Positions 829 to 16,714 of a stretch of 18,293 nucleotides of DNA are shown one piece after another. The translations under genes and the position numbers were made by a program. Every line of letters starts with the position of its first letter. Position 1 is the first letter of the stretch. The stretch comes from Candidatus Latescibacterota bacterium (lineage in GTDB: Bacteria; Latescibacterota; UBA2968), in NCBI GenBank assembly GCA_038279365.1, contig JAYODI010000100.1, positions 1 through 18,293 on the forward strand. The letters are read 5' to 3'. The notes beneath the pieces are model-generated. The model had not been told where the DNA came from. It saw nothing but the letters and a program-made list of their open reading frames with translations, and ran no database searches.

Positions 829-905
829 TGGTCGGGGCGAGAGGATTCGAACCTCCGGCCCCCTGCTCCCAAAGCAGGTGCTCTACCGGACTGAGCCACG
901 CCCCG
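829..905 (-). tRNA. tRNA-Pro (anticodon UGG), CCA encoded
   Basis: Reverse complement CGGGGCGTGGCTCAGTCCGGTAGAGCACCTGCTTTGGGAGCAGGGGGCCGGAGGTTCGAATCCTCTCGCCCCGACCA (77 nt): acceptor stem CGGGGCG/CGCCCCG, anticodon loop TTTGGGA, T-loop GTTCGAATC. Confidence 0.98.
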
Positions 906-6231: not shown

Positions 6232-7359
6232 ATGGCAAAACACCTCATCATAGACGGCCACCTCGACATGGCCTTTAATGGCCTCTTTTATCGGCGTGAC
6301 CTCACCCAATCGGTTTATGAACTGCGCAACCGAGAAGACAGCATACGCGGCGGTATTTCGGCACATCCCGATTCGCTCGAACGCCGCATGGGCCCGCGTC
6401 CCAAACACTTTACACCCACTGTTGCCTTGCCTGAAATGCGCAAAGGCAAAGTGGGTATTATGCTTTCTACCATTATGGCACGCGTGCAAAACCCCGCCGC
6501 CAACACCCACAATGCCGTGCGCACACAAGCCAATGCCTATGCCCGTGGACAATCGCACTTGGCCTATTATCGTGCGCTTGAGCGCAAAGGTGAAATCACG
6601 TTCATCAAATCCACAGCCGATTTGGATGCCTGTATTCAAGCGTGGGAAAACCCCACCGATGAAACACCCATTGGTCTGATCCTCACCATGGAAAGCGCCG
6701 ACCCCATTTTGGGCCCAGACCAAGTATCCGAATGGTATGAAGCGGGTTTGCGTTCGGTGTCTCTCACCCACTTTGGGGCCAATTCTTATGGCCATGGCAC
6801 AGGCACCGTGGGCGGGCTTTATCCTCCGGCATATCCATTAATGGACGCCTTGGCAAAAACCAATATCGCCATAGACCTCACCCACGCGGCAGATCTTGCC
6901 TTTTGGCATATTATGGACTATTGGAAAGGCCCCGTTCACGCCAGCCATTGCAACTGTCGTGCACTGGTGCCCGGACAACGCCATCTCACCGACGACATGA
7001 TCAAAGCCATCACCAATCGTGGCGGCGTGATCGGCACCGTCTTTGCCGAACAAATGCTCAACCCCGCCTGGAACTGGGATGACCCAAGCACACATTATGC
7101 AACCGCCACACGCCCCATGAAAGCCGCCATAGAACACATCGATCACATTTGCAACCTCACGGGCAACACCGATCACATTGCCTTTGGCACCGACCTCGAC
7201 GGCGGGTTTGGGCTGGAACTTTCACCCACAGATTACAACACCATCGACGACCTACAGCGTTTTCTCGACCTCATGGCCAAACACGGCTTTAGCGACGAAG
7301 ACGTAGCCAAATTTGCAAGTGGCAACCTCATTCGATTCTTCAAAAATATCTGGAGCTAA
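6232..7359 (+). CDS. Membrane dipeptidase family (peptidase M19, amidohydrolase fold), paralog 1
   Basis: IDGHLD, MESAD, IDLTH, ASHCNCRAL and FGTDLDGG motifs. Confidence 0.9.
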   Translation: MAKHLIIDGHLDMAFNGLFYRRDLTQSVYELRNREDSIRGGISAHPDSLERRMGPRPKHFTPTVALPEMRKGKVGIMLSTIMARVQNPAANTHNAVRTQANAYARGQSHLAYYRALERKGEITFIKSTADLDACIQAWENPTDETPIGLILTMESADPILGPDQVSEWYEAGLRSVSLTHFGANSYGHGTGTVGGLYPPAYPLMDALAKTNIAIDLTHAADLAFWHIMDYWKGPVHASHCNCRALVPGQRHLTDDMIKAITNRGGVIGTVFAEQMLNPAWNWDDPSTHYATATRPMKAAIEHIDHICNLTGNTDHIAFGTDLDGGFGLELSPTDYNTIDDLQRFLDLMAKHGFSDEDVAKFASGNLIRFFKNIWS

Positions 7360-7365
7360 TTCATC

Positions 7366-8448
7366 ATGTCCAATCATCCATACCTTATTCTCGACAGCCA
7401 CCTCGACCTTGGTTTTGGGGCCATTCAGATCAACCGCGACCTCACCCAACCGGCAAAAACCGTGCGTGTTGCCGACGCCGAATCTACCATGCGCAGTTTT
7501 GGCTCTTGTACCACCACCTTTCCCGAACTGCACAAAGGTCACATCGGCATCGTCTTTGGCACCGTGATGTCGCGCATTGACCCCAATGACCAATGGACCG
7601 GCACGGGCATGTATGACCAAACCCAATGCCACGGCATTGGCATGGGGCATTACAGTGTTTACAAAGCCTTAGAACGCGATGGCATCATCACCCAAATTCA
7701 CAACAGTGCCGATCTCGATGCCAGCATCGCCGCATGGCAAAACCCACAAGCCGACACGCCCATTGGCCTTGTGTTGGCCATGGAAAGCGCCGACCCGATT
7801 ATGGACCCCGAACAGGTGCCCTATTGGTATGACCTTGGCCTGCGCATCGTCAGCATTTCGCACTATGGCACCAGTTCATATTGCCATGGCACGGGCACAG
7901 AAGGCGGCTTACTCGACAGAGGTCGCCCCCTTTTAGATGCGCTTAAAGAAGCGGGCATCATCGTCGACTTAACCCACACCACCGACCAAGCTTTCTGGGA
8001 AATTTTGGATCACTACGATGGCCCAGTGGCGGCGAGCCACCACAATTGTCGGGCACTTGTGCCAGGCCAACGTCAACTGACCGATGAGATGATCAAAGCC
8101 ATTGTGGAACGGGGTGGGGTGATTGGTGCGGCTTTTGATGCGTGGATGCTCGATCCAGAGTGGAAACGCGAAACACCTGCGTGGGGGCAAACCACACAGG
8201 CCACTATTGAAACGGTGTGTGATCACATAGACCACATTTCTCAGCTGGTGGGCAATGCAAACCATTCGGGTATTGGCAGTGATTTGGATGGTGGATTTGG
8301 GCAGGAGCAATCGCCACGGGATTTGAATACGATTGCAGATCTTCAGCGGATGCCTGAGATATTGGATCGGCGGGGATATTCGGATGGGGATATTGCAAAT
8401 TTGATGTCGGGGAATTGGATTAGGTTGTTGAAAGAGGTTTGGGGATGA
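7366..8448 (+). CDS. Membrane dipeptidase family (peptidase M19), paralog 2
   Basis: LDSHLD, MESAD, VDLTH, ASHHNCRAL and IGSDLDGG motifs. Colinear with paralog 1 and starts 6 nt after it. Confidence 0.9.
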   Translation: MSNHPYLILDSHLDLGFGAIQINRDLTQPAKTVRVADAESTMRSFGSCTTTFPELHKGHIGIVFGTVMSRIDPNDQWTGTGMYDQTQCHGIGMGHYSVYKALERDGIITQIHNSADLDASIAAWQNPQADTPIGLVLAMESADPIMDPEQVPYWYDLGLRIVSISHYGTSSYCHGTGTEGGLLDRGRPLLDALKEAGIIVDLTHTTDQAFWEILDHYDGPVAASHHNCRALVPGQRQLTDEMIKAIVERGGVIGAAFDAWMLDPEWKRETPAWGQTTQATIETVCDHIDHISQLVGNANHSGIGSDLDGGFGQEQSPRDLNTIADLQRMPEILDRRGYSDGDIANLMSGNWIRLLKEVWG

Positions 8449-11098: not shown

Positions 11099-11160
11099 AA
11101 GCAGTTAAAAATTAAAATGTCCATTTTTAGACCGTTCCCAGACCTCAAGCAAAACGCATT

Positions 11161-11195
11161 AAAAAAGGCGAGATCGTAATGATCTCGCCTTTTTT
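11161..11195. terminator. Bidirectional intrinsic terminator between the convergent EVE and rhodanese genes
   Basis: AAAAAAGGCGAGATC-GTAAT-GATCTCGCCTTTTTT. Confidence 0.9.
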
Positions 11196-11216
11196 ATGAT
11201 GCTCTTTTTTAATACC

Positions 11217-11305
11217 TCACAACGCCAAGTCAACACCCTGAGCCATTTCAATACCACCAAGCACAGCGGCTCTGCAATGATCGTACCCCGAGCATAGCGT
11301 CGTGA
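11217..11305 (-). ncRNA. Candidate structured RNA element in the 3' UTR of the UGA-containing rhodanese
   Basis: Hand-folded minus-strand RNA: closing stem UCACGACGCUA/UGGCGUUGUGA (11 bp, 2 G-U), inner stems CGAUCAUU/GGUGUUG and GAGCCG/UGGCUC, small side hairpin UGCU-CGG-GGUA. The wobble pairs form only on the minus strand. Confidence 0.5.
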
Positions 11306-11340
11306 TCTACACAACAACAAAATTCTCAAAAATTTTAGAC

Positions 11341-12177
11341 TTACTTCTCTGGCACCTCAATCGGCAAATCCAGCCGATCTCCCCACTCTTTCCACGAACC
11401 AATGTAGTTGCGAATTTTGGGGTATCCCAACAAACGCAATGCCAAATAGCTGTGTGAAGAGCGGTATCCGCCTTGTCAATAGGGTACAATTTCTTTTTCG
11501 GGTGTAACCCCCAAGGCTTCATACATTGCACGCAGTTCCTGGGCTGACTTAAAAGTGCCATCTTCGGCCAAATTGTTCACATATTCCACATGCACCGCAC
11601 CCGGAATGGCACCACCGCGCGCGGCCCTCACATTTGTGCCATAATATTCACCCGCACTGCGCGTGTCTAAGGGCACCACATCATCACGCCCCAACATGCT
11701 GTGCAACATATCGGCTCCCACAGTGCGCTCCCGCATGGGATCACCAAACAATTCGGACCGTTCGGGAACCACACACTCGGTTGTGACCTCATACCCTGCC
11801 GCTTGCCAGGCGGTTAAACCACCATTTAAGACATGCACATCCAAGTGCCCAAAATATTCGCACACCCAAAAACCACGTGCTGCACGCATGCCCGAATTGT
11901 CTTCATACCACACCACTGTTTTTTCTGAACCAATACCCCGACTGCTCAACAAATATTGAAACATCCACATAAACGAATCAAACGCGTCATCGGACGTATT
12001 GTTGAGACTGATGCCATACAAATCCAAATGCACCGCACCCGGAATATGCCCAGCCGCAAACAGATGCGATGGACGCGCATCGACCACGCACAATTTTTCC
12101 TCACCCAATCTTGCATGCAAGTCTTTGACAGACATGAGCAATGCTGGGTTGGCGTATTCATTACTTTCCATAAGCAT
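11341..12177 (-). CDS. Tandem-domain rhodanese/sulfurtransferase (SseA/TST-like), 278 aa, with in-frame UGA at the active site (probable selenocysteine, U234)
   Basis: [30 protein letters not shown] and GAIPGA motifs. After the TGA the frame continues [44 protein letters not shown] to TAA at 11343-11341, including the C-terminal Y.GSW.EW rhodanese signature. Confidence 0.9.
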
Positions 12178-12204
12178 TCCTCTTCCTCAAAATGGACACC
12201 ATCG

Positions 12205-15012
12205 TTATTGATCCAGCGCCTTCTTCAGGTCTTGAATCGATTTTTCCAAAGCCTTCATGGCATCCCCTGCTTTTGCCCAATCCCACTTTTGCATCGATTC
12301 ACGCACAAGTTGATATTGCCGATCTGCCTCGGCAGCCAATTGAACAGCCGATTGATCCACCTGAAGCACTTGTGATGTGTTGGGTGTTGACGACGGTGTG
12401 TCCTGTTGTCCTTTATCCAACGTGCGCCCAGCACCCGAACCAAACAGATCATTAAGCGCATCTTCAAAGGTATCGCGCATGATCACCTGTCCACCATAAG
12501 CCACAATCACTTGCTTCAGCTCTGGAATGGCCGTGCTTTGGCGTTGTTGTCTGGGCTGTTGCACCTGGTTTTGTTGCCCACCACCTTCTTGACCAAATTG
12601 TTGAGGGGGTTGGTCCGACTCTTGGCGTGCTTGCAAATAAATCGGTTCAACATATAAAAATGAGGTCTCTATCGGAATGGCCAACAAGTTACCACGAATC
12701 ACTTCTGATCCACGCTGACCCCACAAAGTCAACTGGCTTGAAATATCGGGCTGTTGGTCAATACGTGCTTCCAACTGCATGGGACCAAAAATGAGCTTTT
12801 CTTTGGGCAACTTATAGACCAACAAATCACCGTAATTTTCACCATCACATCGGGCGGCCATCCAACCAATCATATTGTCTTTTTTGGCGGGTGTAAACGG
12901 TACCATCAGCAAAAACTCTTCGCGTTTTTCTCCGGGCAATTTGACAATGATATAATAAGGCTCCATCATTTGGGGGCGATCGCTATAAATTTCGTTAGGG
13001 ATCTCCCACAAGTCTTCTTGGTTATAAAACAGTTGCACATCTTGCATGTGATAGGAGCGATACATGGCCGCTTGAATGCGGAACAAATCAACCGGATAGC
13101 GCACGTGAGAACGCAAATCTTCTGACAGTTCACTTAAGGGTGTGAACAAACTGGGAAACATATCGGCATAAGCATTAATAAGAGGCTCATCTTCGGCCTG
13201 ATAAAATGTAATGTCTCCATTATAGGCATCAATCACCACCTTGACAGAGTTGCGAATATAGTTAATCTGAGAACGTCCCGTACGGGTTGAATAAGGATAC
13301 ATATTGGTCGATGTATAGGCGTCCAAAATCCAAAACAATCGGCCCTCAGACACCACCATATAAGGATCGGAATCAAAAAACAAAAACGGTGCTATTTCGC
13401 GCGCACGTTGTACAATTTGTCTGCGAAACATAATGCGGCTGTCACCCTTGATATAGGTACTCAACAGCAAATTGGCATCCATCATGCGTATCGTAAACGC
13501 CAACTTTTGAATAAAACTACCAATGGGTACACCACCTGTTCCACTATAGGTGGTAAAGGCATTGCCATCGCGCCGAGGATAATCAAACTCTTCCGTACCC
13601 GTTTTGACAATCACATTGCCATAGGTACGCTCGCCATAATAAATACCTGGTTGTGTGATTTCCAAATCTTTTGACACCGATACTGGAGGTAAATCTTTAA
13701 TTAAAAACTCTGGCAAACCTTCTGGTGTCACGGTTGTCACTGGGCTCATAGCCACACCATAGCCGTGGGTATATTGCAACCGTTCGTTTACCCAGTTTCG
13801 GGCCTGTGCAGGCAAACGATTGGTATCGAGTTCACGCCCAGACAACATCACCTGACTATAAACCCCATCAATGGTATATCGATCTACATCCACATTTGGG
13901 AAAATGTAATAGGGGCGAATTTCTTGAACCTGTTGAAAAGTTTGCGCCATAGGGGGTTGATCCCAAATACGCACATTTCGAATGGTCAATGGGTTGGCTT
14001 CAATATCGGCGGCCGTTAAATTTTCAGAGGCCGCAAAAGGCTTTTCAACAACCCGATCCAAAGCATAGGCCCGCCGAGTTGATTCAATATTGTGCTTGAT
14101 ATATGGTGTTTCGCGTTGTAATTCGGTAGGATCAACAGCAACCTTTTGAACGATGGCACCTGGAATATTGCCCACTCCAATGGCCCCCACCAAAAACACA
14201 CCCAAACCCATAATCAAAGGGCGTGCTTCACGTGTTTTCACATTGCGCAACACCATCACACCCGTAACCAAAAATGCCAAAACCAGGAACCAATAAACCC
14301 ATATTTGCACATTGACATCGACAAAACCTGCACCAAAAAACACACTGCCTTGTGAATACAACAAATCATAAATTTTTAACCGATAGTTGAGCGCAGAAAA
14401 CAACAAAAACAAACCACCCAAAACCGACAAATGAGCCACAGGTCGAGGCATCAGTTGAATGCGATCTTGAATGCGAATACCACCTGCTGCAATATAAATC
14501 ACACTGCTCACAATAGCAGAAACCACCACACAGGCAATCAAAAACCCAACGGTAAATTGATAAAGTGGCAAGTCAAAAACATAAAACCCAACATTGTGAC
14601 CAAAAATAGGATCACTCGAATCAAACGCACCCCCATACCAATATTTAAGCACCATTGGCCACTGCGAAGACCCCACATTGCCCAAAATGAGTACCAAAAC
14701 AGCACCGATTAATGCATATCCAACAGGTGATTTGAGCAGTCCTTCACCAGGAAATTCACCTTCAAAAGGTGTTCCCCCAACCTCTAATGCATGGCGCGTA
14801 AATTTAGACACAAACCAGAGATTCACGCCGACAATAACGGCAGCGATAAGCCCATAAAACACACCCGACAAAAAACGGGCTTTGAGTGTGCGCCAAAAGA
14901 CATCTTGGTAATCCAAGCTGTGAAACCACAACCAATCCGTATAATAAGACGATGCCCATCCCAAACCCATCACCACAGCGACCACGACCGGAATTAGAAA
15001 CTTGCGTTGCAT
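12205..15012 (-). CDS. UPF0182 family integral membrane protein
   Basis: YTDWLWF, DPIFGHNVGFYVFDLP, NVRIWD, DVDRY, YTHGYG, NYIRNSVK, RYPVDLF and VIRGNLL motifs with several N-terminal TM segments. AGGGAG RBS. Confidence 0.93.
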   Translation of the reverse strand: MQRKFLIPVVVAVVMGLGWASSYYTDWLWFHSLDYQDVFWRTLKARFLSGVFYGLIAAVIVGVNLWFVSKFTRHALEVGGTPFEGEFPGEGLLKSPVGYALIGAVLVLILGNVGSSQWPMVLKYWYGGAFDSSDPIFGHNVGFYVFDLPLYQFTVGFLIACVVVSAIVSSVIYIAAGGIRIQDRIQLMPRPVAHLSVLGGLFLLFSALNYRLKIYDLLYSQGSVFFGAGFVDVNVQIWVYWFLVLAFLVTGVMVLRNVKTREARPLIMGLGVFLVGAIGVGNIPGAIVQKVAVDPTELQRETPYIKHNIESTRRAYALDRVVEKPFAASENLTAADIEANPLTIRNVRIWDQPPMAQTFQQVQEIRPYYIFPNVDVDRYTIDGVYSQVMLSGRELDTNRLPAQARNWVNERLQYTHGYGVAMSPVTTVTPEGLPEFLIKDLPPVSVSKDLEITQPGIYYGERTYGNVIVKTGTEEFDYPRRDGNAFTTYSGTGGVPIGSFIQKLAFTIRMMDANLLLSTYIKGDSRIMFRRQIVQRAREIAPFLFFDSDPYMVVSEGRLFWILDAYTSTNMYPYSTRTGRSQINYIRNSVKVVIDAYNGDITFYQAEDEPLINAYADMFPSLFTPLSELSEDLRSHVRYPVDLFRIQAAMYRSYHMQDVQLFYNQEDLWEIPNEIYSDRPQMMEPYYIIVKLPGEKREEFLLMVPFTPAKKDNMIGWMAARCDGENYGDLLVYKLPKEKLIFGPMQLEARIDQQPDISSQLTLWGQRGSEVIRGNLLAIPIETSFLYVEPIYLQARQESDQPPQQFGQEGGGQQNQVQQPRQQRQSTAIPELKQVIVAYGGQVIMRDTFEDALNDLFGSGAGRTLDKGQQDTPSSTPNTSQVLQVDQSAVQLAAEADRQYQLVRESMQKWDWAKAGDAMKALEKSIQDLKKALDQ

Positions 15013-15244: not shown

Positions 15245-16714
15245 ATGTCGATTCATCCTTTAGATGGGGTTGTACACGCCCCACCCTTTCCATTGCACCT
15301 CGATTGGCTCAATACAGACCATCCATTTACAATGGACAGCCTCAAAGGAAAAATCGTTCTGCTCGATTTTTGGACCTACGGCTGTATCAATTGTATGCAT
15401 GTGTTGCCAGACCTAAAGCGTTTGGAACAAAAGTATGCCCAAGAACTGGTGGTCATTGGCATCCACTCAGCCAAGTTTACCCACGAAAAGCAAACAGATG
15501 CCATTCAGGCAGTTATTCACCGCTACGAAATCGAACACCCTGTTGTGAACGACTGTCACTTCCAAATATGGAAAGCCTACAACATTCACGCCTGGCCCTC
15601 GTTTATGCTCATCAATCCCAATGGACGTATTGTGGGTACCCATTCTGGCGAAGGCATTTACCCTCTTTTTGATCCCTTAATACAAAAACTCATCACACAT
15701 TTTGATCAAAAAGGGGCCTTAGATCGTACCCAACAAACGTATAACCGTCAATCGGTTCCCCAGCAAACCTTGCTATTCCCACACAAAATTCACGCCTCCA
15801 ACCATCAGCTTTACATCGCAGATACCAACCACAACCGCATACTGATCACCGACCTCCATGGACACATTCAAGACACCATTGGAAAGGGTGACATGGGCAA
15901 AAAAGATGGCACATTTGAATCGGCCACTTTTTTTCACCCCAAAGGCATCTACCGCTCAGGCGATGATCTCTACATTGCCGACACCGAAAACCACCTCATT
16001 CGCAAAGCCAACCTGACCCAGCGCCGTGTTCAAACCGTGCTTGGAACGGGTCACCAAGCGCAACAATTTAACAAACCAGGCACAGGCCTTTCATGTGCGC
16101 TCAACTCTCCGTGGGACTTAACCATTGAAAACAACATTCTCTACATAGCCATGGCTGGCGCGCACCAAATCTGGGCCGTTGATCCCAATGGTTTTCATGC
16201 ACGCCCTCATGCGGGTTCTGCACGCGAAGACATAGACGACGGCCCATTGCTCACGGCAACACTTGCCCAACCCAGTGGACTAACAACCGATGGCAAACAC
16301 CTCTATATTGCCGACAGTGAAACCAGCGCCATTCGCCAAGCCAGCATTTCCCCCTCGGGTTATGTGGAAACCCTCATCGGAGAAGCCCTTTTCCACTTTG
16401 GTGACAAAGACGGTACGTATCCTAAGGCACGCTTGCAACACCCCTTAGGTATCACCCATCACAATGGGTTGCTCTATGTAGCCGATACCTATAACCACAA
16501 AATCAAAACCATCGATCCCAAAACCAAAACGGCTACCACACGTGCAGGCTCAACCAAAGGTCATCAAGACGGCAACCTTACCACCGCACAATTCAACGAA
16601 CCCTCTGGTGTTACAGTGCATCTTCACTTGCTCTATGTGGCTGACACCAACAACCATGCCATCCGTGTCATAGATCTCAACATGCAAACTGTGTCTACGT
16701 TACACATCCAGTAA
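15245..16714 (+). CDS. Thioredoxin-like (redoxin) domain plus NHL-repeat beta-propeller protein (NHLRC2/SOQ1-like architecture)
   Basis: LKGKIVLLDFWTYGCINCMH and VIGIHSAKF, followed by repeated LYIADT.NH.I NHL repeats. Confidence 0.92.
   Translation: MSIHPLDGVVHAPPFPLHLDWLNTDHPFTMDSLKGKIVLLDFWTYGCINCMHVLPDLKRLEQKYAQELVVIGIHSAKFTHEKQTDAIQAVIHRYEIEHPVVNDCHFQIWKAYNIHAWPSFMLINPNGRIVGTHSGEGIYPLFDPLIQKLITHFDQKGALDRTQQTYNRQSVPQQTLLFPHKIHASNHQLYIADTNHNRILITDLHGHIQDTIGKGDMGKKDGTFESATFFHPKGIYRSGDDLYIADTENHLIRKANLTQRRVQTVLGTGHQAQQFNKPGTGLSCALNSPWDLTIENNILYIAMAGAHQIWAVDPNGFHARPHAGSAREDIDDGPLLTATLAQPSGLTTDGKHLYIADSETSAIRQASISPSGYVETLIGEALFHFGDKDGTYPKARLQHPLGITHHNGLLYVADTYNHKIKTIDPKTKTATTRAGSTKGHQDGNLTTAQFNEPSGVTVHLHLLYVADTNNHAIRVIDLNMQTVSTLHIQ

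Follow-up and report, generated by a model that had tools for sequence, protein, structure and literature searches.

Bacterial selenocysteine (Sec) insertion, as it is taught, relies on a hairpin that immediately follows the UGA codon and presents a loop G about 20 nt downstream, and this adjacent-hairpin rule underlies both the prediction tools and the way in which recombinant selenoproteins are engineered. The bacterial SECIS (bSECIS) model summarized in a 2026 review (PMC13188914) sets rules for stem, loop and energy together with a UGA-to-loop distance of 16-37 nt, and published reviews state that some bacterial SECIS elements depart from the model. Rhodanese-related sulfurtransferase is listed as a selenoprotein family by Zhang et al. 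2005 (PMC1088965) and by the 2026 review, which gives UxxG as the family motif (PMC13188914). The published table enters the class as COG2897, the family was found in marine metagenomes, and the text of Zhang et al. 2005 on the new families (PMC1088965), this one included, describes bSECIS-like stem-loops after the UGA in all of them. An earlier note on the DNA considered here was thus right in stating that Sec-containing rhodanese-like proteins had been reported. Since the family is already published, the novelty of the gene described below is limited: it joins a known selenoprotein family, and the unexpected part is its decoding signal.

The gene lies on the minus strand of a window of 18,293 nt (the whole stretch of DNA that was analysed, from a Candidatus Latescibacterota bacterium). 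Reverse-complement translation of positions 11341-12177 gives a frame of 278 codons with one internal TGA at codon 234 (11476-11478), in the context I-V-P-Y-[TGA]-Q-G-G-Y-R, followed by 44 sense codons and a TAA at 11341-11343; re-reading of the frame revealed no other lesion, as the earlier note had said. The product sizes given there, 278 and 233 aa, hold only in part: the 278-codon frame exists, but translation more likely starts at ATG 12171 than at the alternative ATG 12177, because a Shine-Dalgarno-like GAGGA (12178-12182, minus strand; read from the sequence and presumably functional) lies 6 nt upstream of the former and because the orthologs all start, with M-[SEDA]-D-K-G-Y, at the Met corresponding to it. 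The coding sequence would then occupy 11341-12171, with 276 codons from the ATG, and the full and truncated products would be 276 and 231 aa. Two stretches of the protein match PF00581 (Pfam, E 2e-35), as is the case for tandem-domain rhodaneses, single chains of about 270-300 aa with two such domains: an N-terminal, non-catalytic domain at 11797-12132 (minus strand, 61.3 bits) and a C-terminal, catalytic domain at 11380-11715 (minus strand, 58.8 bits), with the one TGA inside the latter. The two-domain rhodanese class is, we assume, the one that COG2897 denotes. The protein reaches the cut-off of no NCBIfam model, in keeping with its truncated state in annotations. With 109.3 bits against a curated cut-off of 250 for NF008557 (3-mercaptopyruvate sulfurtransferase), the protein is by its score a relative and no equivalog; the two selenoprotein models, NF041203 (rhodanese_LYCAU, 42.3 bits against 115) and NF045694 (TsoB, 23.6 bits against 805), represent, judged in the same way, different forms. 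In the database, the 11 proteins closest to this one (66-93% identity) are each 231 aa long, so that the truncation by gene callers foreseen in the earlier note has indeed taken place.

The best solved relative is the tandem rhodanese of Azotobacter vinelandii (PDB 1e0c, 1h4k, 1h4m), which aligns over residues 7-274 with an E value of 1.7e-46. The two proteins share the two-domain layout, and C-Q-x-x-x-R-S of 1e0c aligns with U-Q-G-G-Y-R-S, the TGA falling on the catalytic Cys (CQthhRS against CQggyRS); they differ in that 1e0c has Cys for Sec and the loop residues T-H-H for G-G-Y. The six-residue loop that the catalytic Cys opens in the C-terminal domain, and that ends in Arg, is present in the window protein with Sec apparently replacing Cys. 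We take the sulfurtransferase of 1e0c to be RhdA, with Cys230 as the catalytic residue. By motif and description, the published rhodanese selenoprotein family (COG2897) resembles the window gene in having Sec at the catalytic position, U-x-x-G of the family being U-Q-G-G in the rhodanese domain here.

The TGA is found at the catalytic column in 28 of 30 related-genome loci, the remaining 2 having TGC or TGT, in 67 of 80 genome loci and in 19 of 79 analysed metagenome loci. When genome and metagenome loci are pooled and duplicates removed, there are 85 distinct Sec forms, the orthologs that keep the TGA being 55-95% identical, and 65 distinct Cys forms with TGC or TGT. Among 41 related genomes, the ortholog has exactly one TGA in 37 and none inside in 3, and one genome is unmatched. 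The earlier note had placed a catalytic Cys in this column and had looked to related genomes for conservation of the TGA, and both expectations are borne out. The presence of the same-column TGA in 85 distinct sequences from independent assemblies is far beyond chance, and together with the number of assemblies and studies involved it refutes a sequencing error or a recent nonsense mutation that would make the gene a pseudogene, a reading that has the bare stop codon in its favor and nothing further. The gene is free of other lesions, and a DNA contig from a different, independent study spans it with two differences, none of them at the TGA, which answers the concern about a read error raised in the earlier note.

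It could also be argued that the TGA is a true stop and that the gene yields a 231-aa product comprising one and a half rhodanese domains without the catalytic loop, with the conservation downstream belonging elsewhere. The database annotation with its 11 proteins of 231 aa agrees with this, and TGA is also an ordinary stop in the window since, as the earlier note had listed, five ORFs (ending at 1055, 1983, 5726, 8448 and 18278) terminate with it; seven other long ORFs end with TAA or TAG. However, the 44 codons after the UGA continue the upstream frame without interruption in all 74 Sec forms, with stops in frame 1 in 20 and in frame 2 in 37 of them, and the mean column entropies of 0.29, 0.09 and 0.97 at codon positions 1, 2 and 3 amount to a strong coding periodicity. 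The downstream codons can also be aligned, residue by residue, to the C-terminus of the Cys forms and of PDB 1e0c, and a separate ORF at this place would have no evident start codon or ribosome-binding site. A true stop is therefore scarcely credible.

The machinery for Sec insertion, which the earlier note proposed to search for, is clustered on a single contig of the genome (C34): selA (506.6 bits), selB (378.9 bits, cut-off 242), selD (366.7 bits), which contains a TGA as well, and tRNA-Sec (68.1 bits) with the anticodon tca (UCA). In the relatives, selB scores above the cut-off in 39 of 41. Besides selD, the genome has at least seven further TGA-containing redox genes. The other TGA-containing genes were identified by family searches, which were used in place of a de novo genome scan for a TGA, a CxxU- or UxxC-like motif and a hairpin; that scan returned 28 candidates, many of them resembling terminators after true stops, with selD alone clearly real. 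In this genome, eight other genes with a TGA carry 6-8 bp hairpins that begin at +16 to +20, with the loops GGU, GGA, GGA, GUG, UGGAU, GUA, CGUGU and one less clear, and the first loop G in these eight SECIS elements is located at +24 to +27. The SECIS of selD, GAUCCGGC-GGU-GCUGGAUC starting at +16, is canonical. The homolog column, the conservation of the TGA and the Sec machinery support what the earlier note had proposed, a site-specific recoding of UGA, most likely to Sec. Thus, the gene very probably encodes a tandem-domain RhdA-type sulfurtransferase in which the catalytic Cys is replaced with Sec and the UGA is recoded by the bacterium's own SelA, SelB, SelD and tRNA-Sec.

In the published accounts of the rhodanese family, the SECIS element is directly downstream of the UGA, whereas in the window gene none is conserved there and a SECIS-like hairpin occurs at +101 (RNA positions are numbered from the U of the UGA at 11476-11478, which is positions 1-3). 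An ungapped hairpin fitting the bSECIS model at a spacing of 16-37 nt after the UGA is present in 0 of 74 Sec forms; the scan considered ungapped stems and may therefore have overlooked a bulged element within the canonical range. Folded alone, the 71 nt that directly follow the UGA are unremarkable (z = -1.18), which first suggested that there was no SECIS, and the signal emerged when 125 nt were compared across orthologs. Searches against Rfam returned no SECIS-like family in 11200-11600 (E <= 10) and, at gathering thresholds over the whole window, tRNA-Pro only.

The structure that emerged consists of two elements, all coordinates being on the minus strand. After a spacer of 11 nt (11465-11475, RNA 4-14) comes the 5' strand of a long-range helix, LR (11453-11464, RNA 15-26), which pairs over 11 bp with a 3' strand at 11383-11394 (RNA 85-96); both strands are delineated by the consensus fold, the pair counts and the minimum free energy fold of the window sequence, and the 3' strand also by the compensatory pairs 18-93 and 21-90. 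In the window, pair 24-87 of LR is an A-G mismatch. The 58-nt interior that LR encloses (11395-11452, RNA 27-84) forms an extended irregular hairpin in the window, its fold varies by clade, and a structure common to all 74 Sec forms was not found in it. Four nucleotides past LR there is a 6-bp hairpin, H3 (11360-11378, RNA 101-119), the proposed SelB-binding SECIS, with the stem AUCGGC/GCCGAU and the loop UGGAUUU at 11366-11372, the loop being U-G-G-A-U-Y-U in the Sec forms. The minimum free energy structure of the window sequence (-45.5, z = -3.52, 1 of 200 shuffles) is exactly the long hairpin plus H3. H3 conforms to the bSECIS model (as in E. coli fdhF) in stem, loop and energy: its stem has 6-7 bp, its 7-nt loop carries G-G at loop positions 2-3, and its dG is -9.5 kcal/mol. 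Unlike the canonical element, it is separated from the UGA by 103 nt, counted to the loop, instead of 16-37, and reaches the canonical distance only if 82 nt are looped out. A displaced position of the SECIS was not part of the earlier note.

A long hairpin at this place might be thought to act without any SECIS, by stimulating a selenium-free read-through of the UGA with near-cognate Trp or Cys, and an extended stem-loop about 8-11 nt past the UGA is indeed a known form of stimulator in eukaryotic viruses (PMC3159437). We consider this very improbable: a rhodanese with Trp in place of the catalytic residue would be inactive, the TGA-less form has Cys (TGC, TGT) in the two related genomes in which the codon was read, the genome encodes the complete Sec machinery as well as at least eight further TGA genes whose SECIS hairpins are ordinary, and the GG loop of H3 is typical of SelB sites.

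LR and H3 both show compensatory changes and are both specific to the Sec forms. Over 74 Sec forms, 99.2% of the cells are paired, compared with 94.4 +/- 0.3 in shuffles (0 of 500 reach this value), and 72 cells are changed on both sides, compared with 22.6 +/- 3.2 in shuffles (0 of 500) and with 0-4 in slid controls. Among the same forms, the LR pair 18-93 is CG in 52, UA in 20 and UG in 2, and the LR pair 21-90 is UA in 48 and CG in 24; in H3, the pair 102-118 is CG in 50 and UA in 23, and the pair 103-117 is CG in 65 and AU in 7. Because the Sec forms are related to one another, these sequence counts overstate the number of independent events and the minimum number of changes on a tree is a safer measure; with a tree built from the N-terminal part of the protein only, each compensatory pair requires 2 to 6 changes per side. 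As read from these alignments, the compensatory changes in LR and in H3 are independent. A drift in GC3 does not explain the two LR pairs, since 18-93 and 21-90 rank first among 50 variable third-position pairs of the pyrimidine-type/purine-type kind, each being Watson-Crick in 72 of 74 forms, with 58 for the next pair. LR is complete (11 of 11 pairs) in 76 of the 85 distinct Sec forms and in 1 of the 65 Cys forms, and H3 with 6 of 6 pairs and G108 G109 is present in 83 of 85 and 0 of 65, respectively; two Sec forms (L084 and L106) have H3 in a shifted register. H3, at its spacing of 103 nt, passes a threshold of dG <= -7.5 in 72 of 74 Sec forms but in none of 14 Cys forms, and the consensus fold has an energy of -23.4 kcal/mol in Sec forms versus -8.05 in Cys forms.

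Two other pairings were considered and rejected. The sequences also permit a hairpin at +5 to +21, which was discarded as the SECIS: it lacks two-sided changes, shares positions with the 5' strand of LR and would be within the ribosome when the UGA is in the A site. For an alternative register of LR, 19-26/94-101, the pair 21-99 forms in just 33 of 74 Sec forms.

Sec may also be inserted with the help of some other non-canonical element that SelB recognizes nearer the UGA, for example the less stably conserved hairpin at +29 to +58 (loop UUGCGGU) or the apex of the long hairpin, in which case the covarying helices would serve another purpose such as ribosome pausing, mRNA protection or selenium-tuned expression. 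Folding predicts the +29 to +58 hairpin for many Sec forms, the published departures from the bSECIS model mentioned above leave room for an element of this kind, and the binding of SelB to H3 is itself a prediction. This hairpin, however, lacks a G at loop positions 1 and 2 and is poorly kept: out of its 11 pairs, three (38-48, 30-57 and 29-58) form in only 43, 38 and 40 of 74 Sec forms and two more in 60-64, and across clades no common fold emerges for the interior of the long hairpin. Conservation coupled with specificity to the Sec forms is seen in H3 and LR only, and the H3 loop resembles the loops of the other SECIS elements of the genome. Moreover, once the 82 nt of positions 15-96 are looped out, the loop G at 108 comes to +26 (108 - 82 = 26), which would have to be a coincidence. 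We therefore regard recognition of another element as rather unlikely, while far less so than read-through.

On balance, it is somewhat probable that LR and H3 constitute a natural discontinuous bacterial SECIS, in which a hairpin located about 100 nt downstream is returned to the canonical position by LR. According to this proposal, positions 15-26 of the mRNA would pair with 85-96 (11 bp), looping out 82 nt of coding RNA, and H3, which adjoins LR after 4 nt, would present its conserved loop G at the equivalent of position 26, i.e., at the canonical distance, with an effective spacing between the UGA and the loop of about 21-22 nt. On a ribosome paused at the UGA, which then occupies the A site, the long helix would have its base at the mRNA entrance, and SelB, predicted to dock at H3 set beside the long helix and not atop it, would deliver Sec-tRNA-Sec. 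The selenolate of the resulting enzyme may accept sulfane sulfur or selenium to form a Se-S or Se-Se intermediate, which is then passed on in the manner of Cys230 of RhdA. Gene callers, ending the gene at the UGA, produce the 231-aa fragment that has no active site.

Our literature search found no description of a SECIS brought into place by a long-range helix. The SECIS elements of archaea and eukaryotes are like H3 in the large linear distance between signal and UGA; they differ in being located in the 3' UTR and in using other factors and other motifs, whereas H3 is within the coding sequence, has the form of a bacterial hairpin and is apparently tethered near the UGA by folding. If the split SECIS is real, SelB-dependent recoding is governed by three-dimensional proximity and not by linear spacing, gene finders that rely on SECIS elements are bound by their design to miss such genes, and part of the "atypical SECIS" fraction of the literature could be explained. 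If confirmed, it would also mean that the constraint imposed by the SECIS on the codons just after Sec is looser than assumed, which bears on selenoprotein finding and design. The annotation needs correction, as what is very probably an active-site selenoenzyme is represented in the databases by a 231-aa fragment that lacks the catalytic residue, and the Sec rhodanese appears widespread, occurring in Latescibacterota, Poribacteria and some MAGs labelled Gemmatimonadota or Nitrospinota.

Three metatranscriptome studies contain contigs that match parts of 11629-12200 at >=99%, i.e., the 5' two thirds of the gene only, and that may reflect DNA carry-over; none of them spans the UGA or the region downstream. 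The neighborhood comparison revealed no conserved operon partner, a UPF0182 gene being present in 1 of 80 loci and an EVE-domain gene in 17 of 80. About 145 nt 3' of the stop codon, a pattern scan detected a terminator-like hairpin flanked by runs of A and T (11160-11196, minus strand), which could serve both the rhodanese gene and the convergent EVE-domain gene.

On the minus strand, 11341-12177 constitutes a single frame of 278 codons that is broken only by the TGA of codon 234 (11476-11478), within I-V-P-Y-[TGA]-Q-G-G-Y-R; 44 sense codons and TAA come after it, just as the earlier note had read. The five ORFs named there as ending in TGA all do so and seven other ORFs in the window stop at TAA or TAG, so, in agreement with the earlier note, there is no genome-wide reassignment of TGA. 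The proposed product sizes of 278 and 233 aa need adjustment: the 278-codon frame does run from 12177, but the start is likely the ATG at 12171, because GAGGA is present 6 nt upstream and the orthologs begin at the same Met; from there the full product measures 276 aa and the truncated one 231 aa.

The protein contains two rhodanese domains (Pfam PF00581, E 2e-35). Its best solved relative is a tandem rhodanese, PDB 1e0c (E 1.7e-46), presumably RhdA-type, whose catalytic loop 'hCQthhRS' aligns with 'yCQggyRS' of the window protein; judged by sequence, the enzyme's nearest relatives are RhdA-type thiosulfate sulfurtransferases. All NCBIfam models stay under their cut-offs (109 bits against 250 for the best-scoring one, 3-mercaptopyruvate sulfurtransferase model NF008557, with selenoprotein models NF041203 and NF045694 falling far short), which may be why annotation pipelines leave the protein truncated. 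With a selenolate in the thiolate's place, the adduct would be Se-S or Se-Se, and the possible benefit is either faster sulfur transfer or selenium handling. Zhang et al. 2005 (PMC1088965) count 'Rhodanese-related sulfurtransferase' (COG2897, 3 sequences) as one of the 15 selenoprotein families they newly describe from the Sargasso Sea, and a 2026 review (PMC13188914) lists five rhodanese-like selenoprotein forms, two of them named rhodanese-related sulfurtransferase with the motif UxxG, which fits U-Q-G-G of the window protein, a likeness of motif and description. Sec-containing rhodanese-like proteins had thus indeed been reported before; the window protein belongs to a published selenoprotein family and, therefore, the gene is not new in kind.

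Among the best 120 of 7463 database matches, the 11 closest (66-93% identity) all have 231 aa and a query coverage of 83%, so their prediction stopped at the same TGA, i.e., gene callers do truncate the product as predicted; full-length matches start at ≤64% identity in the same set. An ortholog is present in 40 of 41 related genomes, the window's own included, with exactly one internal TGA in 37 and none in 3; the only genome giving no match is G007 (89% complete). One of the 37 orthologs (G019:C241:5467-6287) is additionally divided into two overlapping frames near residue 190, owing to either a frameshift or a faulty assembly of the MAG. The catalytic column is TGA in 28 of the 30 loci returned from related genomes (TGC or TGT in 2), in 67 of 80 loci of the species-genome collection (TGC in 13) and in 19 of the 79 analysable metagenome loci out of 80 (TGC in 54, TGT in 6). 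After removal of identical sequences, 85 distinct Sec forms, with TGA, and 65 distinct Cys forms, with TGC or TGT, were obtained, i.e., both the Cys homologs and the TGA-bearing relatives that the earlier note anticipated. By label, the Sec forms belong to Latescibacterota, Poribacteria, a few Gemmatimonadota MAGs and one Nitrospinota MAG, and the Cys forms to Binatia, Chloroflexota, Vicinamibacterales, a Syntrophobacter MAG, a delta-proteobacterium MAG and some Latescibacterota. Mean column entropy after the UGA is 0.29, 0.09 and 0.97 at codon positions 1, 2 and 3, and frame 0 is open in all 74 Sec forms compared, with stops in frame 1 for 20 and in frame 2 for 37, a pattern indicating that the post-UGA codons evolve as coding sequence. 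At the level of sequence accuracy, a 3.6-kb DNA contig from another study spans 11300-12200 with two differences, none at the TGA. Contigs from the RNA libraries of three studies align with parts of 11629-12200 (≥99%) and are silent on recoding because none reaches the UGA.

The Sec machinery is found in one row on contig C34 of the window's own genome: selA (31297-32382, 506.6 bits), selB (32484-34364, 378.9 bits, cut-off 242), selD (35750-36673, 366.7 bits) with its own TGA at 35780, and tRNA-Sec (36827-36920, 68.1 bits; ARAGORN: SeC, anticodon tca). This compact sel cluster (C34:31297-36920, outside the window) holds a selenoprotein gene between selB and selD, a peroxiredoxin/thioredoxin-like gene with an in-frame TGA in W-U-G-C (34912-35256). 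selB is above cut-off in 39 of 41 related genomes, the two others being fragmented MAGs (84% and 91% complete). Family searches of the genome revealed one TGA each in 5 of 25 AhpC/TSA-type matches over the Pfam cut-off, one in the single Rdx/SelW-like match, and TGA in 2 of 11 rhodanese matches, the window gene counted. Four AhpC/TSA-type genes, one Rdx/SelW-like gene and a second rhodanese gene (F-C-T-U-P-N-E) with TGA lie at C93:59262-59630(-), C16:32730-33107(-), C124:15045-15467(-), C134:59422-59811(+), C127:54595-54813(-) and C129:39533-39820(+). With at least nine selenoprotein genes, the organism uses selenocysteine routinely.

Conservation of the TGA column together with the Sec machinery excludes, for practical purposes, a pseudogene or a sequencing error, and also a true stop, against which the coding-type evolution downstream speaks as well. 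Read-through without selenium is unlikely, since catalysis needs Cys or Sec at this residue and the organism has a full Sec system. From the comparative sequence evidence we infer that the TGA is a conserved Sec codon, not damage; column conservation and sel machinery agree on the site-specific recoding to Sec proposed earlier.

The bSECIS model, as quoted in PMC13188914, has an apical loop of 3-9 nt, a stem of 4-16 bp, a G within the first two loop positions, 16-37 nt from UGA to loop and MFE ≤ -7.5 kcal/mol; PMC4605307 places the conserved loop G ~20 nt past the UGA. The other TGA genes of the genome have SECIS hairpins with small loops and 6-8 bp stems that start at +16 to +20 (U of UGA being 1), and the first loop G is at +24 to +27 in all eight, with several stems and loops read from the printed sequence where the MFE drew a different fold. 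The selD element is GAUCCGGC-GGU-GCUGGAUC and that of the sel-cluster peroxiredoxin-like gene ACUGCC-UGGAU-GGCAGU; the loops are GGA, GGA and GUG in peroxiredoxin-like genes 1, 2 and 3, GUA in the SelW-like gene and CGUGU in the second rhodanese, and the element of one further peroxiredoxin-like gene is less clear. In the window gene, folding of the first 71 nt past the UGA does not stand out from shuffles (z = -1.18), Rfam has no match for the recoding region, and a scan restricted to ungapped stems finds a bSECIS-type hairpin at spacing 16-37 in 0 of 74 Sec forms. The accessible portions of reviews and method papers state that some bacterial selenoprotein genes carry SECIS elements outside the model, whose structure they do not describe, and that bSECISearch missed at least 13% of known genes in one test set.

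Third-position variability points to suppressed synonymous change in two stretches of the Sec forms, one from codon -1 to +7 relative to the UGA and one from codon 34 to 38 behind it. Leu codon +35 is CUG in 74 of 74 Sec forms, and at this place Cys forms carry Ala, Thr, Met, Pro or Glu. RNAalifold over positions 1-125 of the Sec forms (-23.4 kcal/mol) yields a long-range helix, LR (15-26/85-96), and a hairpin, H3 (101-119, loop 107-113); the Cys forms (-8.05 kcal/mol) show neither. Third-position entropy is 0.64 in LR/H3 codons versus 1.17 in the remaining post-UGA codons. Four pairs covary in the 74 Sec forms: 18-93 (CG 52, UA 20, UG 2; synonymous third positions of Arg and Glu), 21-90 (UA 48, CG 24, 2 others; third positions of Ser and Lys), 102-118 (CG 50, UA 23, UG 1; third position of Asp and first position of Val/Ile codon +39) and 103-117 (CG 65, AU 7, AA 2; CGG/AGG Arg versus CCG/CCU Pro, both synonymous). 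Paired cells amount to 99.2% versus 94.4 ± 0.3 in shuffles and cells altered on both sides to 72 versus 22.6 ± 3.2 (0 of 500 as high in either case); sliding the partner by 1-3 columns leaves 35-52% of cells paired and 0-4 two-sided ones. In a tree of the 231 N-terminal residues only, the minimum changes per side are 5+6 for 18-93, 4+2 for 21-90, 4+3 for 102-118 and 4+5 for 103-117, and the Sec/Cys state changes at least 4 times. GC3 drift as the cause of the LR covariation was ruled out: when variable third positions of pyrimidine type are combined with those of purine type in this part of the gene (50 combinations in all), the two LR pairs come out on top, each Watson-Crick in 72 of 74 (next, 58). 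One genome may hold U-A at one LR pair and C-G at the other. The window's own 125 nt (-45.5 kcal/mol, z = -3.52, 1 of 200 shuffles as good) have as MFE and centroid exactly a long hairpin 15-96 plus H3 at 100-120; its interior, 27-84, has no consensus and clades fold it differently.

LR is complete (11 of 11 pairs) in 76 of 85 Sec forms versus 1 of 65 Cys forms and has at least 9 pairs in 85 of 85 versus 3 of 65; complete H3 with G108 G109 is present in 83 of 85 versus 0 of 65. Sec forms have Ser-Ser after Q-G-G-Y-R and always Arg-Leu (CGG/AGG, CUG), where Cys forms have mostly Ala and varying residues, respectively; these differences fit a coding sequence bent to RNA structure. Three metagenome Cys forms (L165, L183, L207) keep the complete H3 stem and Arg-Leu with Leu CUC, giving the loop UCGAUCU without GG, and may be left over from a switch of Sec to Cys, or else be forerunners of the Sec form. 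The genome locus L081, a Cys form with Ser-Ser, Arg-Leu and pairs 18-93, 21-90 and 102-118 intact and C-C at 103-117, looks like a recent Sec-to-Cys change with the RNA element starting to decay. In Sec forms L084 and L106, as in L153 from metagenomes, the H3 register is shifted (CUGG-AGUUG/AGUUA-CCAG versus CGGC-UGGAUUU-GCCG), with a different loop in the same place.

H3 (AUCGGC-UGGAUUU-GCCGAU, -9.5 kcal/mol with one extra G-U pair) has the form of the other SECIS of this genome and a loop that starts U-G-G-A-U, as in the sel-cluster peroxiredoxin-like gene; it is, however, located at +101 to +119. LR starts at +15, 11 nt past the UGA, the usual start of a canonical SECIS stem, and the gap between LR and H3 is 4 nt. 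Removal of the 82 nt closed by LR places G108 at the equivalent of +26. LR would thus set aside 82 nt of strongly constrained coding sequence as a loop and, with the UGA in the A site, H3 would probably stand beside the mRNA entrance at the canonical distance. On these comparisons we lean towards a split SECIS, in which H3 would be the SelB site and LR the bridge. The serious, if less likely, alternative, which concerns the mechanism only, is that SelB uses another non-canonical element and LR/H3 serve pausing or stability. In its favour, the canonical-hairpin scan admitted ungapped stems only, Zhang et al. report SECIS-like stem-loops downstream of the UGA for their families, and predictions often show a hairpin at +29 to +58. 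Against it, 3 of the 11 pairs of this hairpin form in only 38-43 and two more in 60-64 of 74 Sec forms, G-U pairs make up nearly all of it in the window, and its loop does not start with G. The independent compensatory changes and the near-absence from Cys forms support the split SECIS, and the recoding signal appears to be a new form of bacterial SECIS; in the literature searched no bacterial SECIS split from its UGA by a looped-out domain was found.

No conserved operon partner of the rhodanese gene was found in 80 loci. The gene of a 935-aa UPF0182 membrane protein (12205-15012, minus strand) ends 27 nt before ATG 12177 on the same strand, an adjacency present in 1 of the 80 loci, from the same genus only. 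Downstream, a convergent EVE-domain gene occurs in 17 of 80 loci, and a sulfatase is also found. Elsewhere in the window, 15245-16714 (plus strand) encodes, without an internal stop, a protein of 489 aa in which NHL repeats come after an N-terminal thioredoxin-like/AhpC-TSA domain, two paralogous genes for membrane dipeptidase (M19) lie side by side at 6232-7359 and 7366-8448 (plus strand) with 6 nt between them, and tRNA-Pro (829-905, minus strand, anticodon tgg) is the sole Rfam or ARAGORN match.
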